Assembly: GCA_965140585.1 (NCBI GenBank)
Contig: OZ223268.1
Coordinates: 96,001 to 160,000 of the forward strand
DNA length: 64,000 bases
Source: Spirochaetia bacterium
GTDB lineage: Bacteria > Spirochaetota > Spirochaetia > UBA9216
Reading direction: 5' to 3'
The notes beneath the pieces are model-generated. The model made no database searches. It saw nothing but the letters and a program-made list of their open reading frames with translations, and had not been told where the DNA came from. Positions 52,337 through 61,437 of the stretch are shown in pieces. The translations under genes and the position numbers were made by a program. How positions within the stretch are numbered: the first letter of the stretch is position 1; every line of letters begins with the position of its first letter.

Positions 52337-53506
52337 CTAATTAAGCGACAACAGAACACCCGCAGCAATTGCAGAGCCTATAACTCCGGCTACGTTTGGT
52401 CCCATTGCGTTCATCAGCAGAAAGTTGCCCGGGTCTTCTTTCTGACCGACCTTCTGTACTACTCGTGCAGCCATAGGTACGGCAGATACTCCTGCAGCTC
52501 CAATCATCGGATTGATCTTTCCGCCGCTTATCTTGCTCATCAGCTTTCCAAGCATTACTCCGCCGCCGGTTCCTACTCCGAATGCTATACATCCAAGCAC
52601 AATAATGAAGATTGTCTCAAATGTAAGGAAGTGGTCGGCTGACATCTTCGAACCTACTGATATTCCAAGGAATATGGTAACTATGTTTATAAGCTCGTTC
52701 TGGGCTGTCTTTGAAAGCCTGTCTACAACTCCGCACTCCTTGAACAGGTTTCCAAGCATTAGCATTCCGATTAGAGGTGCTGATGCCGGAATAAGCAGGG
52801 CTGTAACTATTGTTGTGATTATCGGGAAAAGAATCTTTGTCCGCTTTGATACGGGTTTCGGATCTTCCATCCTGATAAGTCTTTCCTTCTTGGTTGTGAG
52901 AGCCTTGATAATAGGCGGCTGTATAATCGGTACAAGCGCCATATACGTATAGGCTGCTACTGCAATAGGTCCAAGCAGATGCGGTGCAAGCTTCGATGTA
53001 AGATATATCGCTGTAGGACCGTCAGCTCCTCCGATTATTGCGATGGAAGAGGCCTCTGCGAAGTTGAAGCCCAGATCATGCGCCGCAAGAAAGGGTATTG
53101 CTCCAAGCGCCTTTGCTCCAAGCAGGGTTATAAATATACCAAGCTGTGCAGCGGCTCCAAGAAGAAAGGTCTGCGGCTTGCCCAGTAGCGGTCCAAAGTC
53201 CGTCATCGCACCAATTCCCATGAAGATAATCGGCGGAAACAGTCCAAGCTGAACACCCTGGTAAAAATAGTATATAAGTCCGCCGGCCTGGTCTCCGATT
53301 GGGCCTTCCAGAAGCCCTGTAAGCGGAAGGTTTACCAGTATTGCTCCAAACCCTATCGGGATAAGCAGCAGCGGCTCATAACCCTTTGCTATTGCAAGGT
53401 AAACAAGCAGACAGCCGATTGCAATCATCACAATGTTCTGCCAGGTGATTGCTGTGAAGGCGGTGCTGCTTAGAAATCTCAATATTAGATCTACGAAATT
53501 CACCAA
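52337..53506 (-). CDS. mmdB: Na+-translocating decarboxylase beta subunit
   Basis: [25 protein letters not shown] and MGPNVAG motifs. Confidence 0.93.
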
Positions 53507-53515
53507 ATCCCTCCG

Positions 53516-54001
53516 TTAGCCGATGTCTACAAGCGGCTGTCCTTCGGTTACGTTTGTACCCGGAGTTACATGGATGGCTGCTACTGTACCGGCATTGCTT
53601 GCAAATACTTCAATGTCCATCTTCATTGCTTCCATTATCAGTAGAAGATCTCCCTTGGCTACACTTGCACCCTGGGCTACCTTGATTTCCTTGATTGTTC
53701 CTGTGATTGCAGCCTTCTCAGTTCCGGCTCCGGCTGCTACAGGGGCGGCGGCTGGTGCAGGCGCGGCAGCTGCGGGAGCGGGGGCGGCAGCTGCCGGTGC
53801 TGGTGCGGCCGGTGCAGCAGCTGCAGCAGGGGCTGCAGGCGCAGCGGCCGGTGCAGCAGGAGCTGCTGTTGCTCCTGCAGGGGTTGCAAGGCTTACAAGG
53901 TAACTATCGCCTTCATGCTCAATTGTAAGGACATTTCCGTTTCTTGTTACGTTTATGTCGTAAAGTGTTCCTTCATATTCAAACTTAATATTCTTGCTCA
54001 T
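53516..54001 (-). CDS. mmdC: Biotin carboxyl carrier subunit with Ala/Pro linker
   Basis: EAMKM biotinylation motif and long Ala/Pro-rich hinge. Confidence 0.92.
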   Translation of the reverse strand: MSKNIKFEYEGTLYDINVTRNGNVLTIEHEGDSYLVSLATPAGATAAPAAPAAAPAAPAAAAAPAAPAPAAAAPAPAAAAPAPAAAPVAAGAGTEKAAITGTIKEIKVAQGASVAKGDLLLIMEAMKMDIEVFASNAGTVAAIHVTPGTNVTEGQPLVDIG

Positions 54002-54006
54002 AACTC

Positions 54007-54393
54007 TTATACTCCTGGTGCTTTTCTTGTAATTTTATTGCTAGCGACCCACGGGTCATACTTTGCTGCTCCCGCTGAGCTCCATCCTGAAGCCTTCGGG
54101 GCATTCTGCTCATCTTCCTCTGCTGCCAGAAACGCTGATACCGCAGCCGAAAGCCATTTGGCGTTGTCGGCCATTGTTGCTGTAGCTGCTGCAACTATTA
54201 CAGGCAGGGGCAGACCGCCGCTCTTCTTTGCTGAAGAAGCCCTGGCAGATTTCGGCGCTGTGCTTTTGGCTGTATCACCGTCTGCGAATTTCCTTATCAG
54301 AACCATCAGCAGACTCAGAAGGACTAACAGCGTAAATACTATCAGTATTCCAAGTATGGATGTCATAACACTGTAAATAAATTCTTCCTGCAT
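54007..54393 (-). CDS. mmdD: OadG/MmdD-type anchor subunit
   Basis: N-terminal TM GILIVFTLLVLL, AAVSA and late Trp motif; position in the operon. Confidence 0.8.
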   Translation of the reverse strand: MQEEFIYSVMTSILGILIVFTLLVLLSLLMVLIRKFADGDTAKSTAPKSARASSAKKSGGLPLPVIVAAATATMADNAKWLSAAVSAFLAAEEDEQNAPKASGWSSAGAAKYDPWVASNKITRKAPGV

Positions 54394-54408
54394 AAAACTC
54401 TCCGCCTC

Positions 54409-55959
54409 CTACAGTGGTATATTGCCGTGTTTCTTGGCAGGTCTGTCTTCACGCTTTTTGATGTTGATCTCAAGCGCTCTGATGAGTTCTGCACGGGTGT
54501 ATTCGGGATCGATTATATCGTCTACAAGACCAAGTCCTGCGGCTACGTAGGGGTTCATGAACTCTGTCTGGAACTCTGCTATCTTTTCCTGTCTCTTTGC
54601 TTCAGGATCCGATGCTGAACTGATGTCCTTTCGAAAGATGATGTTTGCTGCACCCTCTGCTCCCATTACTGCTATTTCTGCTGTCGGGTAGGCAAGGACT
54701 CTGTCGTATCCAAGTGACTTGGAGGACATTGCTATCATTGAACCGCCGTAGGATTTTCTCATAATCAGCGAAATCTTGGGCACTGTTGCCTCTGCTATTG
54801 CGTAGAGGATCTTTGCTCCGTGCCTGATGATTCCACCGTGCTCCTGGGCAACGCCTGGAAGGTAGCCGGGAACGTCAACGAGTGTGATTACCGGAATATT
54901 GAAAGCATCGCAGAAGCGAATGAATCTTGCTCCCTTGTCTGATGAGTTGATATCAAGTGATGCAGCCATGAACTTCGGCTGGTTGGCAAAGATTCCTACA
55001 GTGCGTCCGTTTAGCTTTGCGAAACCTACTACTACGCTTTTGGCGAAGTCTTCCTGTACTTCAAGAAATGAACCTGCGTCGAAGGCGCTTCCGATTATAT
55101 CGCGTACATCGTAGGGCTTTCTGGGCTCTTCGGGGATGATCGACATTATTTCGGGGGTGGTTCTCTCAAGTGAATCTGTACATGCGCTTACTGGCGGCTG
55201 CTCTGTGTTATTTGACGGCAGGTAGTCCATAAGCCTTCTGATGAAATCAAAACATTCCTGCTCGGATGAAAAACGGAAGTGGGCGACTCCGCTTTTTGCA
55301 CAGTGAGCTGATGCTCCACCGAGGTCTTCGTGGCTGATAACCTCACCGGTTACTGTCTTGATTACATCCGGACCGGTGATGTACATGTGACTTGAACCGT
55401 CTACCATGAATATGAAGTCGGTTATGGCCGGTGAGTAAACTGCACCTCCGGCACAGGGACCGAGTATTACTGAAAACTGAGGAATTACACCTGATGAGAG
55501 TGTGTTGTTCCGAAAGATTTTGGCGTATCCGTTTAGTGAGAGTATTCCCTCCTGGATTCTTGCTCCGCCTGAATCGTTGACCTGGATAAACGGTGAGCCG
55601 TTTTTGAGTGCAAGACTTTGGGCCTCTGCAATCTTTTCGGCATGCATTTCTCCAAGTGAACCGCCGAGAACTGTAAAATCCTGAGCTGACAGGAATACCT
55701 GCTTGCCGTTCATCTTGCCTGTTCCGGTTACTACTCCGTCGCCGGCAAACTTGTTTTTATCCATTCCGAACTGGCTTGTTCTTGTCTGGATGTATGCCTG
55801 GCTTTCAACGAAACTTCCCTCATCCAGAAGTCCGGTGATCCTTTCTCTGGCGGTAAATTTCCCTTTATCATGCTGGGCTTTGATTCTGGCGTCGCCGCCG
55901 CCCTTCTGCATTTTTGCTCTGAAGTCTTTAAACTCCTGAAGCCGCTCGTTGTTATTCAT
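54409..55959 (-). CDS. mmdA: Acyl-CoA carboxyltransferase subunit ((methyl)malonyl-CoA decarboxylase alpha type)
   Basis: DSGGARIQEG, GPCAGGAVYSPA, DVPGYLPG and KKHGNIPL motifs. Confidence 0.9.
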   Translation of the reverse strand: MNNNERLQEFKDFRAKMQKGGGDARIKAQHDKGKFTARERITGLLDEGSFVESQAYIQTRTSQFGMDKNKFAGDGVVTGTGKMNGKQVFLSAQDFTVLGGSLGEMHAEKIAEAQSLALKNGSPFIQVNDSGGARIQEGILSLNGYAKIFRNNTLSSGVIPQFSVILGPCAGGAVYSPAITDFIFMVDGSSHMYITGPDVIKTVTGEVISHEDLGGASAHCAKSGVAHFRFSSEQECFDFIRRLMDYLPSNNTEQPPVSACTDSLERTTPEIMSIIPEEPRKPYDVRDIIGSAFDAGSFLEVQEDFAKSVVVGFAKLNGRTVGIFANQPKFMAASLDINSSDKGARFIRFCDAFNIPVITLVDVPGYLPGVAQEHGGIIRHGAKILYAIAEATVPKISLIMRKSYGGSMIAMSSKSLGYDRVLAYPTAEIAVMGAEGAANIIFRKDISSASDPEAKRQEKIAEFQTEFMNPYVAAGLGLVDDIIDPEYTRAELIRALEINIKKREDRPAKKHGNIPL

Positions 55960-56076: not shown

Positions 56077-56838
56077 CTAGAAAATGGCGTTAACTATCAG
56101 ATATCCTACTGAAGGACAAAGAAGTGTTCCAAGTCCTGTATAGAAAGTTGCAGTCATTGCACCGTAGGGAACAAGCTTGATATCAGTAGCCGCAAGTCCG
56201 CCTGCAACACCACTGGTTGTTCCGATAATTCCGCCGTATACCATTGCTGTAGTCGGGTTATCAAGACCGATCTTCTTGGCAATAAGCGGGGTCATGATCA
56301 TCGTCAGTACAGACTTAACAACACCTGCCGCAACAGACAGGGCTACAACCGACGAGCTTACGCCTAGGGCATCACCTGTTACCGGTCCTACAATAAAAGT
56401 AACTGTACCTGCACCGATTGTTGTTAGTTCTTTGGGGTCAACAAAACCCAGTATACGGGCAATTATAACTCCGACAACGAATGAAAAAATAACACCGATG
56501 AAAAGAGCTACAACACCTGCAAGCCCTGCTTTCTTGAGATTCTCCATCTTAACACCATATGCTGTTGATACAATGGTGTAGTCTCTGAGGGCACTTCCTC
56601 CAAGTATGAGAAAACCTGCAAAAAGAGGCAGATCAGCAAGACCTTTTTTTCCGCCGGTGAATTTACCAGCAACATATGCAAGAATAAGGGCAAGTATGAT
56701 TGCAAAAGCAGATCCCATCTTTCCCTGTTTGATCATTTTTGCTACATAGTAAGCAAGAAGCATCGCAAGAGCGACAAAACCGAAAGCGAGGACAAGGTGA
56801 TCACGTCCCATGATACTGTTCATTATTTTTGCAATCAT
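56077..56838 (-). CDS. madM: Malonate transporter subunit MadM
   Basis: GGKKGLAD, LRDYTIVSTA, GTTSGVAGGLAA and LVPYGAMTATFYTG motifs. Confidence 0.9.
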   Translation of the reverse strand: MIAKIMNSIMGRDHLVLAFGFVALAMLLAYYVAKMIKQGKMGSAFAIILALILAYVAGKFTGGKKGLADLPLFAGFLILGGSALRDYTIVSTAYGVKMENLKKAGLAGVVALFIGVIFSFVVGVIIARILGFVDPKELTTIGAGTVTFIVGPVTGDALGVSSSVVALSVAAGVVKSVLTMIMTPLIAKKIGLDNPTTAMVYGGIIGTTSGVAGGLAATDIKLVPYGAMTATFYTGLGTLLCPSVGYLIVNAIF

Positions 56839-57212
56839 ACTTCTTCTCCTTTATCTTTACCAAGCTTGGCTACTAATGGTACAAGAAACAGTGAAGCTAT
56901 AGTTGCAATGCCTCCGGCCAGAAATGCAACCGCACCGCCGTCAACTGCAGCTACAACATTCTGGGATGCTGCCATAGCAACAACAACCGGAATGTAGATA
57001 GAACTCAGAAAAAGTATTCCGTTTTCAGTTTTTGCACTGAAACCGCCCTTTTTTGATTTTTGAACTCTTGCAGTAACAATAACCAGAAGAAGCATTGCTA
57101 TACCTACACCGCCGACATTACCCCCGATGCCGATTACCGCACCAAGAATTCTGCCGATGAAATTTCCGACAAAGTAACAGGCTGCTACTATTCCAAGGCC
57201 GTATATTTCCAT
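56835..57212 (-). CDS. madL: Malonate transporter subunit MadL
   Basis: MEIYG, NVGGVGIAMLLL and YIPVVVAMAASQNV motifs; overlaps the madM start. Confidence 0.9.
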   Translation of the reverse strand: MEIYGLGIVAACYFVGNFIGRILGAVIGIGGNVGGVGIAMLLLVIVTARVQKSKKGGFSAKTENGILFLSSIYIPVVVAMAASQNVVAAVDGGAVAFLAGGIATIASLFLVPLVAKLGKDKGEEV

Positions 57213-57251: not shown

Positions 57252-58475
57252 TTATTTTTTGTCGAAGACAACTCCGCTGTTCAGCAGTTCTTCAACTTTT
57301 TCTTTTGAATATCCGAGTTCATTCTGCAGATATTCAATTGTGTGCTCCCCAAGTCCGGGAGCCGGTGTTCTGACTGTACCGGGAGTTTCCGTCATTTTAA
57401 ACGGAGATCCGGCCATAGTTACTTTACCAACTCCGGGCTGTTCAACATCAACTATCATTTCGCGGTAAAGCAGGTTCGGGTCTTTTACAACCTTATCAAT
57501 TGTGTTCAATGGTGAATACGGCAGGCCGTTTTCATCAAGAAGCTTGATCCATTCTTCGGATGTCTTCTTTTTCATTTCAACATCCAGAATTCTGACCAGT
57601 TCATCTCGGTTCTGTGTTCTGAGAGGATTAGTTTTGAAAAGTTCATGATCAGTCAGATCTTCTCTTTCAATAAGTGTACAGAATTTCTTCCAGAGAGAAT
57701 CATTACCGATAGGTGTTATAACCCAGCTGCCGTCACTTGTTTCAAATGCCTGAAACGGAGTTATGGTCGGGTGAGCACTTCCGAGAGGTACGGGAATTTC
57801 ACCTTTGGCAGTGTATCTGACAATTGCATTCTCAAGAATGTACACGAGACCATCTACCATAGAAATATCTATATGCTGTCCTTCGCCGGTTCGGTTTTTA
57901 TGCTGCAGAGCTGCAAGAATGCCGATCGCACCCTGATGTCCTGCAACTACATCACCTACAGACGAGCCTACGCGTACCGGAGCTCCGCCGAGGGGGCCTG
58001 TGATACTCATCAAACCGCTGAATCCCTGTGCAACCATGTCGTATGCCGGACGGGTTGCATACTCGGGAAGAGCATCATGTCCGAATCCGCAGATTGAGCA
58101 ATAAATAATTCCGGGATTTATTTTTTTTAATTCTTCATATGAGAAACCAAGTTTTCTCATGGTTGTCGGACGGTAGTTTTCAACTACGATATCCGCATCC
58201 TTAATCATGTCTGTCAGTAGAGCCTTACCTTCATCTTTTTTAAGGTCAACACAAATACTCTTTTTATTTCTGTTGATACTGATGAAATATCCGCTCTGCT
58301 TTCCGTTGCCGTCCTGTTCATCAAGGAAGGGTCCGAATGCCCTTGAATCATCACCAATAGGGGGTTCAACTTTTACAACTTCAGCCCCCATATCTGCCAG
58401 AATCATCGTGCAGAACGGTGCAGCAAGTACATGACTAAGATCGACTATTTTAATTCCTTCCAATGCCTTTTTCAT
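57252..58475 (-). CDS. Family III (CaiB/BaiF) CoA-transferase
   Basis: LADMGAEVVKVE, NRNKKS, ENYRP, GD catalytic Asp and APGLGEHT motifs. Confidence 0.92.
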   Translation of the reverse strand: MKKALEGIKIVDLSHVLAAPFCTMILADMGAEVVKVEPPIGDDSRAFGPFLDEQDGNGKQSGYFISINRNKKSICVDLKKDEGKALLTDMIKDADIVVENYRPTTMRKLGFSYEELKKINPGIIYCSICGFGHDALPEYATRPAYDMVAQGFSGLMSITGPLGGAPVRVGSSVGDVVAGHQGAIGILAALQHKNRTGEGQHIDISMVDGLVYILENAIVRYTAKGEIPVPLGSAHPTITPFQAFETSDGSWVITPIGNDSLWKKFCTLIEREDLTDHELFKTNPLRTQNRDELVRILDVEMKKKTSEEWIKLLDENGLPYSPLNTIDKVVKDPNLLYREMIVDVEQPGVGKVTMAGSPFKMTETPGTVRTPAPGLGEHTIEYLQNELGYSKEKVEELLNSGVVFDKK

Positions 58476-58596
58476 AAAGGCCTCCTGTGATTTTTGTTTT
58501 CACAAAATCACTTGATCACTAATAAATTGAATTAAACACACTCTTTCACAATGTTATTTTCTTGATACCTCCAGGGGCTCTCTTTTCTTTATGAGC

Positions 58597-58631
58597 AAAA
58601 AAAAAGAGAAGTATTCTGACACTACTTCTCT
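58597..58631 (-). terminator. Leader terminator (attenuator) between the hutP-like gene and the CoA-transferase
   Basis: RNA AGAGAAGUA-9 nt-UACUUCUCU followed by U8; two UAG triplets overlap the 5' arm. Confidence 0.85.
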
Positions 58632-58700
58632 AATACACGCGTTAATAAAATTTCACTACAGGGACTGAACACTAATACACACTAAATTTTTTCAGTCCTG
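58620..58700 (-). promoter_or_regulatory. UAG-repeat leader, putative binding site of the HutP-family protein
   Basis: UAG at plus-strand positions 58682, 58672, 58656, 58630 and 58622 (four as UAGUG); hairpin CAGGACUGAA/UUCAGUCCCUG displays two of them in its loop. Confidence 0.7.
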
Positions 58701-58718
58701 TTTATACACAAATAAAAA

Positions 58719-59141
58719 TTATTTTAAATGCATAACCCCAAGCGCACACCGCTCATGGTTTGTTATTGGATAGAAGGCGGAATCACCGTAAATCGCAACG
58801 GCAACCCATTCCTCATTTGTTACAATGCCCACCTTAAGTTTCAGGCTGGCCTCTGCCGGAACACTGCTGATAACACCGTTAAGCGCTTCAAGAGCAGCAT
58901 GAAGAACAGCATGAACCTGCGTTCCGTTTTTTTTGATCAATCCATTCTGAAGCGAACAACCGACGATTGATTTTACAAAACTCTTCTTGATATCGGAGGT
59001 CAGACCGGTAATAAAAGTCACCGCAAGTTTTTCCTTTCCGATAGTGTTATTGACTTCAGCCTTAATCTGGCGCTCTTCTTCTTCATCAGACATAGCAGCA
59101 AGAAGTGCCATTTTTCCAATACGATCTGTATTCAGCTTCAT
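58719..59141 (-). CDS. hutP: HutP-family RNA-binding antiterminator
   Basis: IGKMALL, HAVLHAALEAL (HxxxH) and WVAVAIYG...HERCALGVMHL match the HutP fold and its metal-binding His residues. Confidence 0.85.
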   Translation of the reverse strand: MKLNTDRIGKMALLAAMSDEEEERQIKAEVNNTIGKEKLAVTFITGLTSDIKKSFVKSIVGCSLQNGLIKKNGTQVHAVLHAALEALNGVISSVPAEASLKLKVGIVTNEEWVAVAIYGDSAFYPITNHERCALGVMHLK

Positions 59142-59149
59142 GTTTAGTC

Positions 59150-59179
59150 ATACTACACTCGGAAATGCACAATTGTCAA
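59150..59179 (-). promoter_or_regulatory. Sigma70-type promoter of the hutP-like gene
   Basis: TTGACA-18 nt-TAGTAT, then 8 nt to ATG; no Shine-Dalgarno sequence. Confidence 0.55.
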
Positions 59180-59247
59180 TAAAAAAACTAAAGCTATCGG
59201 GATTTTTTTATCTATATATTCTGGTTTAAATTGTTGATTTTAACTTT

Positions 59248-61437
59248 TCAGGGTTGAAATCGACCTGGAATCCTAATACGAAAAACAGTCCCCTGCCCCG
59301 GTTCCGAATCGACTGCAATATATCCATCGAGTGTATCAATAATATTTTTCACAATTGCAAGACCAAGCCCCATTCCGCGATGTATTTTAGTATAAATATT
59401 TTCAAGTTGCTGGAAAGGCTGAAAAATAAGCGGAAGATCCTCCTTCTTAATTCCGGGCCCTTCATCCGCTATTTCAAGAATCAGCTCATCAGCCGATTCT
59501 ATTATGCTGCAGGTAATCTTTCCATTCTCTGAATATTTTATTGCATTTGTAATAAGGTTGTTTACTATCTGAGCAATACGGGTTTCATCACCGTAGAAAA
59601 AACCTGATTTATATTTTTTGCAAGCCGACAGGTGAAGATCCTTTTTTTCCAGAGAATCACTGAATATTTCAGAAGCAAGCATACCGATATTATTCAGTTT
59701 GAAAACCTGTTTACTGATAGAAATTTTACCAATGCTGAACTGGGTAAAATTCAAAAGATCCTCAATTATTGTTTTTAGATTATCGGTAGAAACAAGGGCA
59801 AGATTGTACCACTCTTGTTCTTCTGTATTAAAAGAAACTCCTGCCAGAAGCCTTAGCATGCCGTAGACTCCGTTAAGCGGAGTCCGCAGTTCATGACTGA
59901 TATTTGCAAGAAAATCATTTTTTACCCGAAGTGCTGTTTCAGCCTTGATTCTTGCGTGTTCTATCTGTTCTGAAATTTTGATTTTTTCAGTTACATCATG
60001 TATGATTGCATAAAGATATTCATGGCTGCCGGCATTCAGACGCCCGCTGAATAACTCTATATGCCGGGTATCTCTTTTTGCAAGCTTGATCCTCATTGTT
60101 TTGCCTGATAATTCATCAAACTTAAAAAAACCTTCTTCAATATTTTCTTCATCGGCAAGCAGATTGTAAAGTGAGAGATTTTTCAGTGCATTTTCAGGAT
60201 AACCAAGATAATCCACAGCAGCCTGATTCAAATCAATTATTCTGCTTGTAACCGGTTCGAATAAAATAATGACTGATGTGTTATCATAAAAAAGGCTTCT
60301 GTATTTTAATTCACTTAAACGAAGTGCAGATTCAGCCTTTTTCCTGATATTAATATTTATAAGTGAAAACAGAAGTAAAACTGCCATTATACTGAAAATG
60401 CTCACCGAACTCAGCACCAGAGCCTTATTTTCCCTGAGAAAACTGTATGGTCTGTTGATGATTTCAGAATCTTCCGGAAGCTTCCTCAAACTGATTCCAA
60501 AGCGTTTCAGTTCCTGATAATCAAATATGTAGTGATTATCAGCATCACTCCGGATAGGAATTGAAGCCGGAGATGCACCATCAAGTATTTTTAGAGCAGT
60601 TTCTGCGGCACTGATTGCCTGCTCATAGTGACTAATCACCCTTCCTCCGAAAACACCATCACCGAAACCGTGATACCATAGATGAAAAAGCGGTATTTTA
60701 AGATTCTCATAAATTATCTTCAAACTCTCATTAAAAAGAAGATTATTTCCTTCACTGTCCTGATAGGCAGAAAGCAGAAGTAAACTAGTATCCCGTCCTA
60801 AACCGGAGAGAATTGCTGCAAATTCCTGCCATGTATAATCTTTAAGAGATATTGTTCTGAACTCATATGAAGGAAATTGGTTTTGAAGCTCATTAAAAGC
60901 CCTTAAATCAGCAGCTCCGCTGGTTGTTGCATCGGAAATGGCCGTAATTGTTTCAGTCTGGGGAAAAAGAGAAATCATCAATTCTATAGTATCTTTCATC
61001 GATACGGCTTCAATCAGCCCTGTTACCATCGGGTCATTATTATAACTCAGAGCTTTCTTAATATCATTGACCCCGAAAAAAACTATCGGAACATCGTTAA
61101 AAAACTCATTCCGCATACTCATACATAAATCAAGCGCATTATCATCTGCAGTTATTACCAAATCATATTCAGGAACATGCTGAAACTTGTAGATAAAAAA
61201 TTCCCTTCTAAGCTTTATTACCTCATCAGTATTAAACCGTTTTGAATCCAGAAATTCCATATCCAGAAGAACATGTTCTTCATCAAGCACTGAACGCAAT
61301 CCGTCAATCTGATGATTGAAAGTCGGAAACGAAGGGTTATATGAGCTGATAAATAAAATTCTTTTAAAATGATCATGTGTATAGGCAGGTAGACCAGTAA
61401 CCAGCATAATCAGAATCAGGACACACTTACGGAACAT
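59248..61437 (-). CDS. Sensor histidine kinase (ABC substrate-binding-like periplasmic domain, PAS, HisKA, HATPase)
   Basis: SHELRTPL, NLITNAIKY, DEGPGI and GMGLGL motifs. Confidence 0.92.
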   Translation of the reverse strand: MFRKCVLILIMLVTGLPAYTHDHFKRILFISSYNPSFPTFNHQIDGLRSVLDEEHVLLDMEFLDSKRFNTDEVIKLRREFFIYKFQHVPEYDLVITADDNALDLCMSMRNEFFNDVPIVFFGVNDIKKALSYNNDPMVTGLIEAVSMKDTIELMISLFPQTETITAISDATTSGAADLRAFNELQNQFPSYEFRTISLKDYTWQEFAAILSGLGRDTSLLLLSAYQDSEGNNLLFNESLKIIYENLKIPLFHLWYHGFGDGVFGGRVISHYEQAISAAETALKILDGASPASIPIRSDADNHYIFDYQELKRFGISLRKLPEDSEIINRPYSFLRENKALVLSSVSIFSIMAVLLLFSLININIRKKAESALRLSELKYRSLFYDNTSVIILFEPVTSRIIDLNQAAVDYLGYPENALKNLSLYNLLADEENIEEGFFKFDELSGKTMRIKLAKRDTRHIELFSGRLNAGSHEYLYAIIHDVTEKIKISEQIEHARIKAETALRVKNDFLANISHELRTPLNGVYGMLRLLAGVSFNTEEQEWYNLALVSTDNLKTIIEDLLNFTQFSIGKISISKQVFKLNNIGMLASEIFSDSLEKKDLHLSACKKYKSGFFYGDETRIAQIVNNLITNAIKYSENGKITCSIIESADELILEIADEGPGIKKEDLPLIFQPFQQLENIYTKIHRGMGLGLAIVKNIIDTLDGYIAVDSEPGQGTVFRIRIPGRFQP

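Follow-up and report, generated by a model that had tools for sequence, protein, structure and literature searches.

A candidate HutP-type antitermination switch on a malonate operon in a Spirochaetia bacterium

What does a HutP-family regulator control when no genes for histidine breakdown accompany it? The question is raised by a 64,000-nt stretch of the genome of a Spirochaetia bacterium (GCA_965140585.1, contig OZ223268.1, positions 96,001 to 160,000), referred to here as the window. All parts of the switch and operon discussed below lie on its minus strand. Reading that strand 5′ to 3′, a promoter is followed by a 140-aa hutP-like open reading frame, a 243-nt non-coding leader and seven further genes, which encode a family III CoA-transferase, MadL, MadM, a carboxyltransferase, an OadG-like small membrane protein, a biotin carrier and an OAD-beta pump subunit. 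A first-pass annotation, made from the sequence alone, had described this order as far as madM, likened it to the Bacillus subtilis hut layout (promoter, HutP-family gene, repeat-bearing leader with a terminator, catabolic genes) and stated that the window holds no hut gene. Each of these points was borne out, the last by a Pfam search of the window's genes. We estimate a probability of about two in three that a ligand-gated HutP-type transcription antitermination switch controls the malonate fermentation operon. Taken by parts, an antitermination switch on the CoA-transferase/mad operon appears quite probable, and malonate as its effector somewhat better than an even bet.

The HutP-like protein and the AGUG words of its leader

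The hutP-like gene (58719-59141) encodes a protein that matches the Pfam family PF09021 (HutP) over 128 of 128 profile positions (E 3.1e-31, 108.7 bits, cut-off 25). Its AlphaFold2 model, built with 48 relatives in the alignment, reaches a predicted local distance difference test score of 90.2 and a predicted template modelling (TM) score of 0.87. When this model was searched with Foldseek, the top ten PDB matches were all HutP (TM 0.69-0.79) and later matches had E-values of at least 0.02; identity to the solved HutPs is 22-28%. In an alignment to the PDB sequence, H77, H81 and H129 fall on His73, His77 and His138 of B. subtilis HutP, which we take to be its divalent-metal ligands. None of the three varies in any of the 48 clade members, and conservation is at least 90% across 45 diverse representatives, themselves 25-57% identical to the query, in agreement with the initial description of a HutP-family gene that has kept its metal-binding histidines. 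By analogy, we assume a homohexamer with two RNA-binding faces. The family is small, with 68 clusters at E <= 0.001 among 1.84 billion representatives, and in this phylum it occurs in 2 of 401 genomes searched, including the window's own genome, which carries a single HutP gene.

The leader RNA between the hutP-like and CoA-transferase genes (58476-58718) contains seven AGUG. Five UAG triplets lie before the terminator (58684, 58674, 58658, 58632 and 58624), four of them as UAGUG; a sixth UAGUG in the leader begins at 58521, and GUGUAUUAG occurs twice (58680-58672 and 58638-58630). RNAfold predicts an upstream hairpin, P1 (CAGGACUGAA / UUCAGUCCCUG; 58659-58700), with two UAGUG in its loop (58684-58680 and 58674-58670), and a third UAGUG follows directly 3′ of P1 (58654-58658). 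Next comes a predicted intrinsic terminator (58597-58631; RNAfold, -9.9 kcal/mol), in which AGAGAAGUA (58631-58623) forms nine pairs with UACUUCUCU (58613-58605) around a 9-nt loop, followed by U8 at 58604-58597. The terminator 5′ arm and loop carry UAGAG and UAGUG as a UAGAG-N3-UAGUG element (58620-58632), which can equally be read as an AGAG-N4-AGUG dyad; the block GUGUAnnAGnGAAnUAGUGU is invariant in 5/5 aligned leaders. The first-pass annotation had reported the five UAGs with four UAGUG, the repeated GUGUAUUAG, a 9-bp terminator with U8 whose 5′ arm overlaps two UAGs, and a second hairpin presenting two UAGs in its loop, and all of these were recovered.

Past the terminator, the leader contains a GGAGG element (58568-58572), picked out by sequence and k-mer count, and a block GUGAAAGAGUG with one AGUG inside (58539-58549) that is conserved in the leader alignment. 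A UAGUG-N3-AAGUG element, equivalent to an AGUG-N4-AGUG dyad (58509-58521; invariant AGUG...AGUGAUUUUGUG), then overlaps the 5′ arm of a hairpin, GUGAUUUUGU-GAAA-ACAAAAAUCAC (58511-58487), supported by RNAfold and the leader alignment. This hairpin abuts the Shine-Dalgarno sequence AGGAGG (58486-58481), the two together spanning 58481-58511. A search of 58300-59400 against Rfam at permissive thresholds returned three chance-level matches only (E 1.2-8.1, far under gathering scores), and by this measure no known riboswitch or leader family is present there.

Judged by its distribution, the repeat word is better read as (U)AGUG than as UAG, often in the form of a dyad, AGUG-N4-AGUG, with an 8-nt period. 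AGTG occurs seven times in 249 nt of the leader versus 2.4 times in dinucleotide shuffles, 2 of 1000 of which reach seven, and its reverse complement CACT does not occur there. Genome-wide, AGTG is found 2.1 times per kb per strand, and only three places in 4.85 Mb hold at least seven per 250 nt per strand; of these, the leader alone lies outside a long open frame. Other AGUG clusters were rejected as further members of a regulon, since the two with at least seven copies and four others that we inspected lie in long open frames or in an apparent rRNA gene, and no second target was found in the genome by way of such clusters.

To place the leader among its relatives, we fetched 8 genome loci, 48 metagenome loci, sequence from a second Spirochaetota genome and two plasmid-collection records (numbered with the prefix L). 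After near-duplicates were dropped (of the window, L001, L002 and L061; of L004, L011 and L012; of L015, L024; also L026; L046; L049; L051; L053-L057; L062 and L063, which lie inside L064), 46 non-redundant loci remained, the window included. Ten leaders entered an unbiased k-mer count, namely those of nine loci with the CoA-transferase and that of L027, in which an Mmd-type decarboxylase comes next. AGTG is the top 4-mer (49 versus 13.6 expected, standard deviation 3.2, shuffle maximum 24) and TAGTG, present in 10/10, the top 5-mer (32 versus 4.4 expected). Downstream of hutP-like genes, 19,648 nt contain 20 AGTG-N4-AGTG dyads, in 13 of the 46 loci; the remaining 697,438 nt of the loci contain 7, counting both strands. 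Allowing A or C in first position gives 29 dyads in 22.5 kb versus 18 in 695 kb, in 16 of the 46 loci. No AGUG cluster was found downstream of those hutP-like genes that end their operon or face a convergent gene.

Nine loci with clustered AGUG (the window, L003, L004, L010, L013, L020, L023, L025 and L028) have a hairpin and U-tract with AGUG inside it or at most 14 nt upstream. The stems of these predicted terminators differ in sequence; L013 has two such hairpins, and in L003, L010 and L028 the AGUG itself is paired in the stem. The five closest leaders can be aligned, with blocks that do not vary in two places, one at the terminator dyad and one at the dyad plus hairpin adjacent to the ribosome-binding site (RBS), and a P1-like upstream hairpin with other stem sequences occurs in L010 and L028. 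Two copies of GUGA-N4-GUGA lie within 316 nt of leader on Rhodobacter capsulatus pRCB133, and the rest of the 20-kb locus has none on either strand. With C accepted for A, the dyad geometry therefore reaches a G+C-rich alphaproteobacterium.

GGAGG is also enriched over the ten leaders (15 seen versus 0.8 expected, true Shine-Dalgarno sites included). Most leaders (the window, L003, L010, L019, L020, L025 and L028) show a GGAGG-like element soon after the terminator without a usable start codon, and in the window, L003 and L010 RNAfold pairs it with the CCUUU spacer between Shine-Dalgarno and AUG. A leader peptide translated from this element was rejected, as inspection by eye gave no start codon at a usable distance in the window, L003, L010, L020 or L028. 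We also discarded an anti-Shine-Dalgarno pairing, GCCCCUG:CAGGAGGC, as a general feature; it is seen in the window and is unconserved in L003, L010 and L028.

Malonate genes downstream and beside HutP relatives

The transporter genes of the operon are assigned by score: MadL (56835-57212) passes the equivalog cut-off of TIGR00807 (127.4 bits versus 113.45) and MadM (56077-56838), the malonate/Na+ symporter subunit, that of TIGR00808 (307.8 versus 236.3). The family III CoA-transferase (57252-58475; Pfam CoA_transf_3) is proposed to be a malonate:acetyl-CoA CoA-transferase. The last four genes probably encode the subunits of a Na+-translocating biotin decarboxylase of the Mmd/Oad/Gcd type. These are an MmdA-like carboxyltransferase alpha subunit (54409-55959), which passes Pfam Carboxyl_trans; an OadG-like small membrane subunit (54007-54393), a weak match just below the cut-offs of both Pfam (26.1 versus 27) and TIGR01195 (29.8 versus 36.05); a biotin carboxyl carrier subunit with an Ala/Pro linker (53516-54001), which passes Pfam Biotin_lipoyl; and the beta subunit (52337-53506), which passes TIGR01109 (520.9 bits versus 190.6). 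We infer that the substrate is malonyl-CoA. In the window's genome, which is 98.5% complete, no urocanase, no histidase or other aromatic-lyase match and no methylmalonyl-CoA mutase was found, which makes both histidine and succinate-derived methylmalonyl-CoA unlikely inputs. A succinate-to-propionate reading of the decarboxylase is likewise not favoured, given the missing mutase.

The decarboxylase module (carboxyltransferase, OadG-like subunit, biotin carrier and OAD-beta; 52337-55959) is present twice in the genome, with 98% nucleotide identity over 3.67 kb. Its second copy (G000:C6:677660-681323; L060) is without HutP, CoA-transferase and MadLM. It is preceded by a xanthine/uracil-family permease and two small membrane proteins without a Pfam match, and divergently upstream of it lie genes for an aldehyde dehydrogenase and a class III aminotransferase.

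Across the relatives, malonate is the recurrent theme. In nine loci the hutP-like gene is followed by the same CoA-transferase, with MadL and MadM next where the contig continues. Malonate or decarboxylase genes lie in the fetched flank of 26 of the 46 loci: 9 of the CoA-transferase type, 1 of the Mmd type, 11 with mad genes of the acyl carrier protein (ACP) type, 3 with OAD-beta upstream and 2 with MadLM upstream. The other 20 comprise 13 that are too short or uninformative, 5 from Caldisericota that are of another kind and 2 in other contexts. The ACP-dependent Malonomonas-type route, recognised by MadA (PF16957), ACP (PF06857), CitG (PF01874), a MadB-like OAD-beta and a biotin ligase, is found in L013, L015, L035, L038, L045, L048, L050 and L052; L047 was also classed as ACP-type, by eye. 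Two annotated records belong to this route as well. On R. capsulatus pRCB133, the gene RCAP_RS18130, labelled HutP family protein by the prokaryotic genome annotation pipeline (PGAP), leads an mdcB-madB-mdcA...madL cluster, and in a Klebsiella record a protein with the same PGAP label is encoded inside an annotated mdc/mad cluster. In a maximum-likelihood tree of 47 HutP-like proteins the two pathway types interleave, and well-supported branches force at least five changes of the ACP-type label and at least two of the CoA-transferase label. This comparative result is the strongest support for malonate, which is the likely signal because HutP relatives flank two non-homologous malonate pathways.

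Several loci depart from the window's arrangement. In Klebsiella pneumoniae CP125156.1 (L066, 5759-8309; plasmid-listed, 5.37 Mb), a distant HutP-family gene, 22% identical, stands last, after madL and madM, and overlaps a LysR regulator gene of divergent orientation, so that one malonate locus may have regulators of two kinds. The Caldisericota loci (L005-L009, e.g. L007 6419-16733) hold a HutP-family gene, 46-48% identical, inside an operon for a xanthine/uracil-family permease, two small membrane proteins, AllH, an FdrA-like protein, AllG, cyclases and a molybdenum-dehydrogenase FAD subunit. Homologs of this permease and of both small proteins (59%, 29% and 29% identity) are encoded ahead of the second decarboxylase copy in the window's genome, and our guess is that this context is linked to pyrimidine or purine breakdown that gives malonate.

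Tandem hutP-like genes were seen twice. In L015 (4927-5300) two such genes precede a leader of at least four tandem 56-nt units, each with AGUG-N4-AGUG and one more UAGUG, and then CitG and MadB-like genes. The second Spirochaetota genome (L064, G273:C57, 8395-10785) also has two, separated by a promoter-like site, two AGUG-N4-AGUG dyads and a hairpin with a U-tract, an arrangement that suggests that one paralog gates the other. Its second copy is followed by more AGUG, two terminator-like hairpins, a small membrane protein and a sodium:solute symporter-like gene (by eye). Finally, L018, L019, L020, L023 and L025 show a good -35/-10 pair (by eye) past the hutP-like stop codon and ahead of the first AGUG, so in these loci regulator and target would form separate transcripts, unlike in the window.

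Direction of control, effector and rival explanations

The hutP-like gene would be transcribed from its own promoter, for which a sigma-70-like candidate lies at 59150-59179 (TTGACA at 59179-59174, an 18-nt spacer and TAGTAT at 59155-59150; 10/12 consensus matches). Only 8 nt separate the -10 hexamer from the start codon and no Shine-Dalgarno is visible there (59141-59155); provided that the promoter call is right, this would give an mRNA with little or no leader. With the inducer absent, transcripts would end at the hairpin and U8 (58631-58597). With the inducer present, the HutP-like oligomer would bind single-stranded (U)AGUG in the P1 loop and just 3′ of P1, and also in the dyad that makes up the terminator 5′ arm and loop. 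Because these sites occupy the P1 loop and the terminator 5′ arm and loop, binding should block the terminator from folding and turn the operon on as RNA polymerase reads into the downstream genes, which should suit a substrate-induced catabolic operon. MadLM would then import malonate with Na+, the CoA-transferase would use malonate and acetyl-CoA to form malonyl-CoA, and the biotin decarboxylase would convert malonyl-CoA to acetyl-CoA and CO2 while pumping Na+. We speculate that malonate acts as a bidentate chelator of the His-triad metal, in place of the amino and carboxylate groups of L-histidine; this is plausible because the triad is kept and the presumed histidine-holding residues are not. 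The RBS-adjacent dyad, its hairpin and the GGAGG element may provide further control of translation or stability.

A number of observations weigh against this reading. The regulator belongs to the HutP family by sequence and predicted fold but is no HutP ortholog, because it scores 40.6 bits against the cut-off of 155 of the HutP equivalog, NCBIfam NF002838; 0 of 10 sampled relatives pass this cut-off. The positions of B. subtilis Arg88, Arg98 and Tyr69, presumably the residues that hold L-histidine, align with S92, L102 and T74. In the pocket comparison with B. subtilis HutP that the first-pass annotation had proposed, here made by sequence alignment, the His triad is kept and the presumed L-histidine contacts are replaced by Ser, Leu and Thr; these changes fit another ligand without identifying one. 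The CoA-transferase falls below every NCBIfam equivalog cut-off, and the carboxyltransferase alpha subunit is below that of TIGR01117 (mmdA; 781.7 bits versus 998.8). The promoter match alone is weak evidence, because a scan of the region gave 3 promoter-like sites and shuffles lead one to expect 3.0.

Further points of this kind concern the RNA. A consensus terminator scanner called 0 terminators; we rejected this as evidence of absence, since the 9-nt loop exceeds the scanner's limit of 8 nt and both RNAfold and a separate scan find the hairpin. The folding energy of the whole leader is unexceptional (z -1.38; 19 of 200 shuffles fold as well). Three of the seven leader AGUG lie past the terminator, one in GUGAAAGAGUG and two as the dyad at 58520-58509, which forms the 5′ side of the hairpin 58511-58487, and neither these nor the conserved hairpin are accounted for by pure antitermination. 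The repeat code departs from that of B. subtilis, with (U)AGUG in dyads of 8-nt period versus three NAG with a 7-nt period. Among the relatives, L014, L015, L018, L019 and L033 have clustered AGUG and no terminator in the stretch examined, the L027 terminator was seen by eye only, and no AGUG enrichment was found in L043/L056 or in the 37-40%-identity branch next to madA (L044-L054). The Caldisericota gene has no leader at all, with ~15 nt to the next gene. The idea that homologs share a leader of UAGs and a terminator survives in altered form: (U)AGUG with a predicted terminator is found in nine loci, the word is better given as (U)AGUG than as UAG, and 33 of the 46 loci are without the dyad downstream of the gene. 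Much the same can be said of the original proposal of a HutP-type switch on a malonate operon. Its layout and malonate link are supported, by the MadL and MadM equivalogs and by relatives at both pathway types; its UAG/NAG word had to be revised, and its regulator is not a HutP ortholog.

Of the rival explanations, the one that survives best retains the switch as described and changes the effector, to methylmalonate, succinate, oxalate, malonyl-CoA, acetyl-CoA or a divalent metal alone. We consider this unlikely. The pocket residues point to no ligand in particular, and the models closest to the CoA-transferase, all below cut-off, are those of succinyl-CoA:mesaconate, succinate-glutarate and oxalate CoA-transferase. 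Relatives also occur in the purine- or oxamate-like operon, beside TctA and an isocitrate-dehydrogenase-like gene, and before the sodium:solute symporter-like gene (by eye). However, malonate is the only theme common to the two non-homologous pathway types next to the clade, MadL and MadM score as malonate transporters, and a methylmalonyl-CoA mutase was not found in the genome.

It is also conceivable, with rather poor odds, that the hairpin and U8 merely end the hutP-like transcript, that the operon has its own promoter in 58476-58596, and that the protein or another factor acts at the RBS-adjacent AGUG dyad and hairpin on translation or mRNA stability. Three AGUG, a conserved dyad and an almost invariant hairpin do abut the Shine-Dalgarno sequence, L014 has a dyad near the Shine-Dalgarno and no detectable terminator, and the internal -35/-10 pairs (by eye) of L018, L019, L020, L023 and L025 indicate that separate transcription of regulator and target occurs in the family. 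Yet those internal promoters precede the AGUG words and the terminator rather than follow them, and AGUG words lie in the terminator 5′ arm in nine loci. A strong independent promoter in 58476-58596 had been named from the start as the finding that would overturn an antitermination switch; the scanner reports no minus-strand promoter-like site in that interval, and an internal promoter after the terminator was rejected, the candidate -10 boxes found by eye being poor and unconserved.

It is most improbable that the AGUG words are bound by another factor or reflect shared ancestry of the leaders, with the HutP-like protein in a role that does not involve RNA. Some of the conservation is inherited, since the five closest leaders can be aligned, but the word recurs in leaders of differing G+C that cannot be aligned by eye (L013, L018, L020, L023, L025 and L033; R. 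capsulatus as GUGA), is ~100 times as dense directly after hutP-like genes as in the rest of these loci, is strand-specific and contains the AG that HutP recognises (passages of PMC2425495).

The genes that flank the switch and operon were left out of this scheme. A histidine kinase gene upstream of the hutP-like gene is not counted as part of the switch because it has no tblastn match in L003 or L004. Downstream of the operon lies a gene for a GGDEF protein, for which we found no link to the switch.

Novelty and comparison with known systems

We found no description of a HutP-family regulator of malonate genes, or of one outside hut, in the literature searched, which does not cover most subscription journals, including the 1997 Malonomonas rubra cluster paper. 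RNA-binding antitermination by HutP is textbook material, but in the passages available of a 2025 review, HutP is treated only as a Bacillus histidine regulator, with Bacillus orthologs only (PMC12591593). HutP family proteins beside mad/mdc genes can already be seen in public annotation; an interpretation of this association was not found in the literature searched. Fold and logic are known; the regulon is probably new, as is probably the ligand, and the repeat geometry appears different. To our knowledge, no regulator is known for Na+-pumping malonate fermentation operons.

If the proposed antitermination switch is real, the HutP fold would be a re-usable sensor of ligand and metal, with its specificity retuned to a dicarboxylate and with another RNA code, and it would supply the missing regulator of these operons. 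It would also offer synthetic biology a compact, protein-based, malonate-responsive RNA switch, and the natural pair of histidine and malonate sensors would be suited to the study of the joint evolution of ligand specificity and RNA-repeat geometry within a single small scaffold. R. capsulatus SB 1003 is cultured and genetically tractable, and the system is directly testable there. A wider claim is tentative, and we give it clearly less than an even chance: Bacillus HutP could be a single specialised branch within a small family of metal-bridged sensors for small acids that hops between phyla. Found in Spirochaetota, Thermodesulfobacteriota and Alphaproteobacteria (R. capsulatus pRCB133), and probably also in mad clusters of the classic Malonomonas type, a whole subfamily would then be the hitherto unrecognised malonate sensor of anaerobic malonate fermentation. 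It would read an (A/C)GUG(A)-N4 dyad code instead of triple NAG, malonate would replace L-histidine by two-carboxylate chelation of the His-triad metal, and the second dyad at the RBS would lead to control of translation as well as termination.

The closest known system is HutP of B. subtilis at the terminator between hutP and hutH. According to passages of two sources (PMC2425495, PMC12591593), L-histidine and Mg2+ activate HutP, which binds XAG repeats ahead of and inside the terminator and keeps it from folding; the hutP gene is promoter-proximal (PMC2425495). The window shares with it the Pfam family, the fold and the aligned metal-site histidines, a promoter-proximal regulator gene followed by a terminator-bearing leader and catabolic genes, and single-stranded AG-containing repeats before and within the predicted terminator. 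The differences lie in the identity of ~22-28% and the failed HutP equivalog, in the absence of hut genes from the genome, where the target would be a malonate operon, in the changed Arg88, Arg98 and Tyr69 positions, whose roles we presume, and in the extra sites near the ribosome-binding site. HutP is described as contacting A and G of its XAG site together with the base two positions past that G (PMC2425495, in the part available); in (U)AGUG, this position holds the conserved G. The HutP sites are given as two groups of NAG, three to a group, with spacers of two to four nucleotides (PMC12591593, in the part available). The five UAG and one CAG of the window's leader are readable as 3 + 3 NAG with a 23-nt linker, the B. 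subtilis pattern having a linker of 12-20 nt.

Bacillus TRAP is alike in being an oligomeric protein that controls termination through repeated XAG triplets in a leader, a comparison drawn in passages of PMC2425495. The fold is unrelated. TRAP binding promotes termination, whereas here antitermination is predicted because the sites overlap the terminator arm.

The M. rubra-type mad cluster encodes a biotin- and ACP-dependent Na+-pumping malonate decarboxylase with a MadLM symporter (PMC8085960, in the part available). It shares MadL and MadM with the window, and relatives of the window's regulator lead such clusters or sit inside them. Unlike them, the window is without MadA, ACP and CitG genes, and its MadLM accompanies a CoA-transferase of family III and a decarboxylase of the Mmd type. 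Such a route through malonyl-CoA was reportedly described biochemically by Dehning and Schink for Sporomusa malonica and R. capsulatus. The first gene of the M. rubra mad cluster, madY, is presumably a HutP-family gene, a guess that we make from the gene order in R. capsulatus.

Malonate-responsive control of malonate catabolic genes is itself familiar from MdcY (GntR type), MdcR (LysR type) and MatR. The likeness extends to the genes controlled, and a LysR gene adjoins the Klebsiella cluster that holds a HutP-family gene. Those regulators are DNA-binding repressors or activators at promoters, whereas the hutP-like system is proposed to act on RNA at a terminator.

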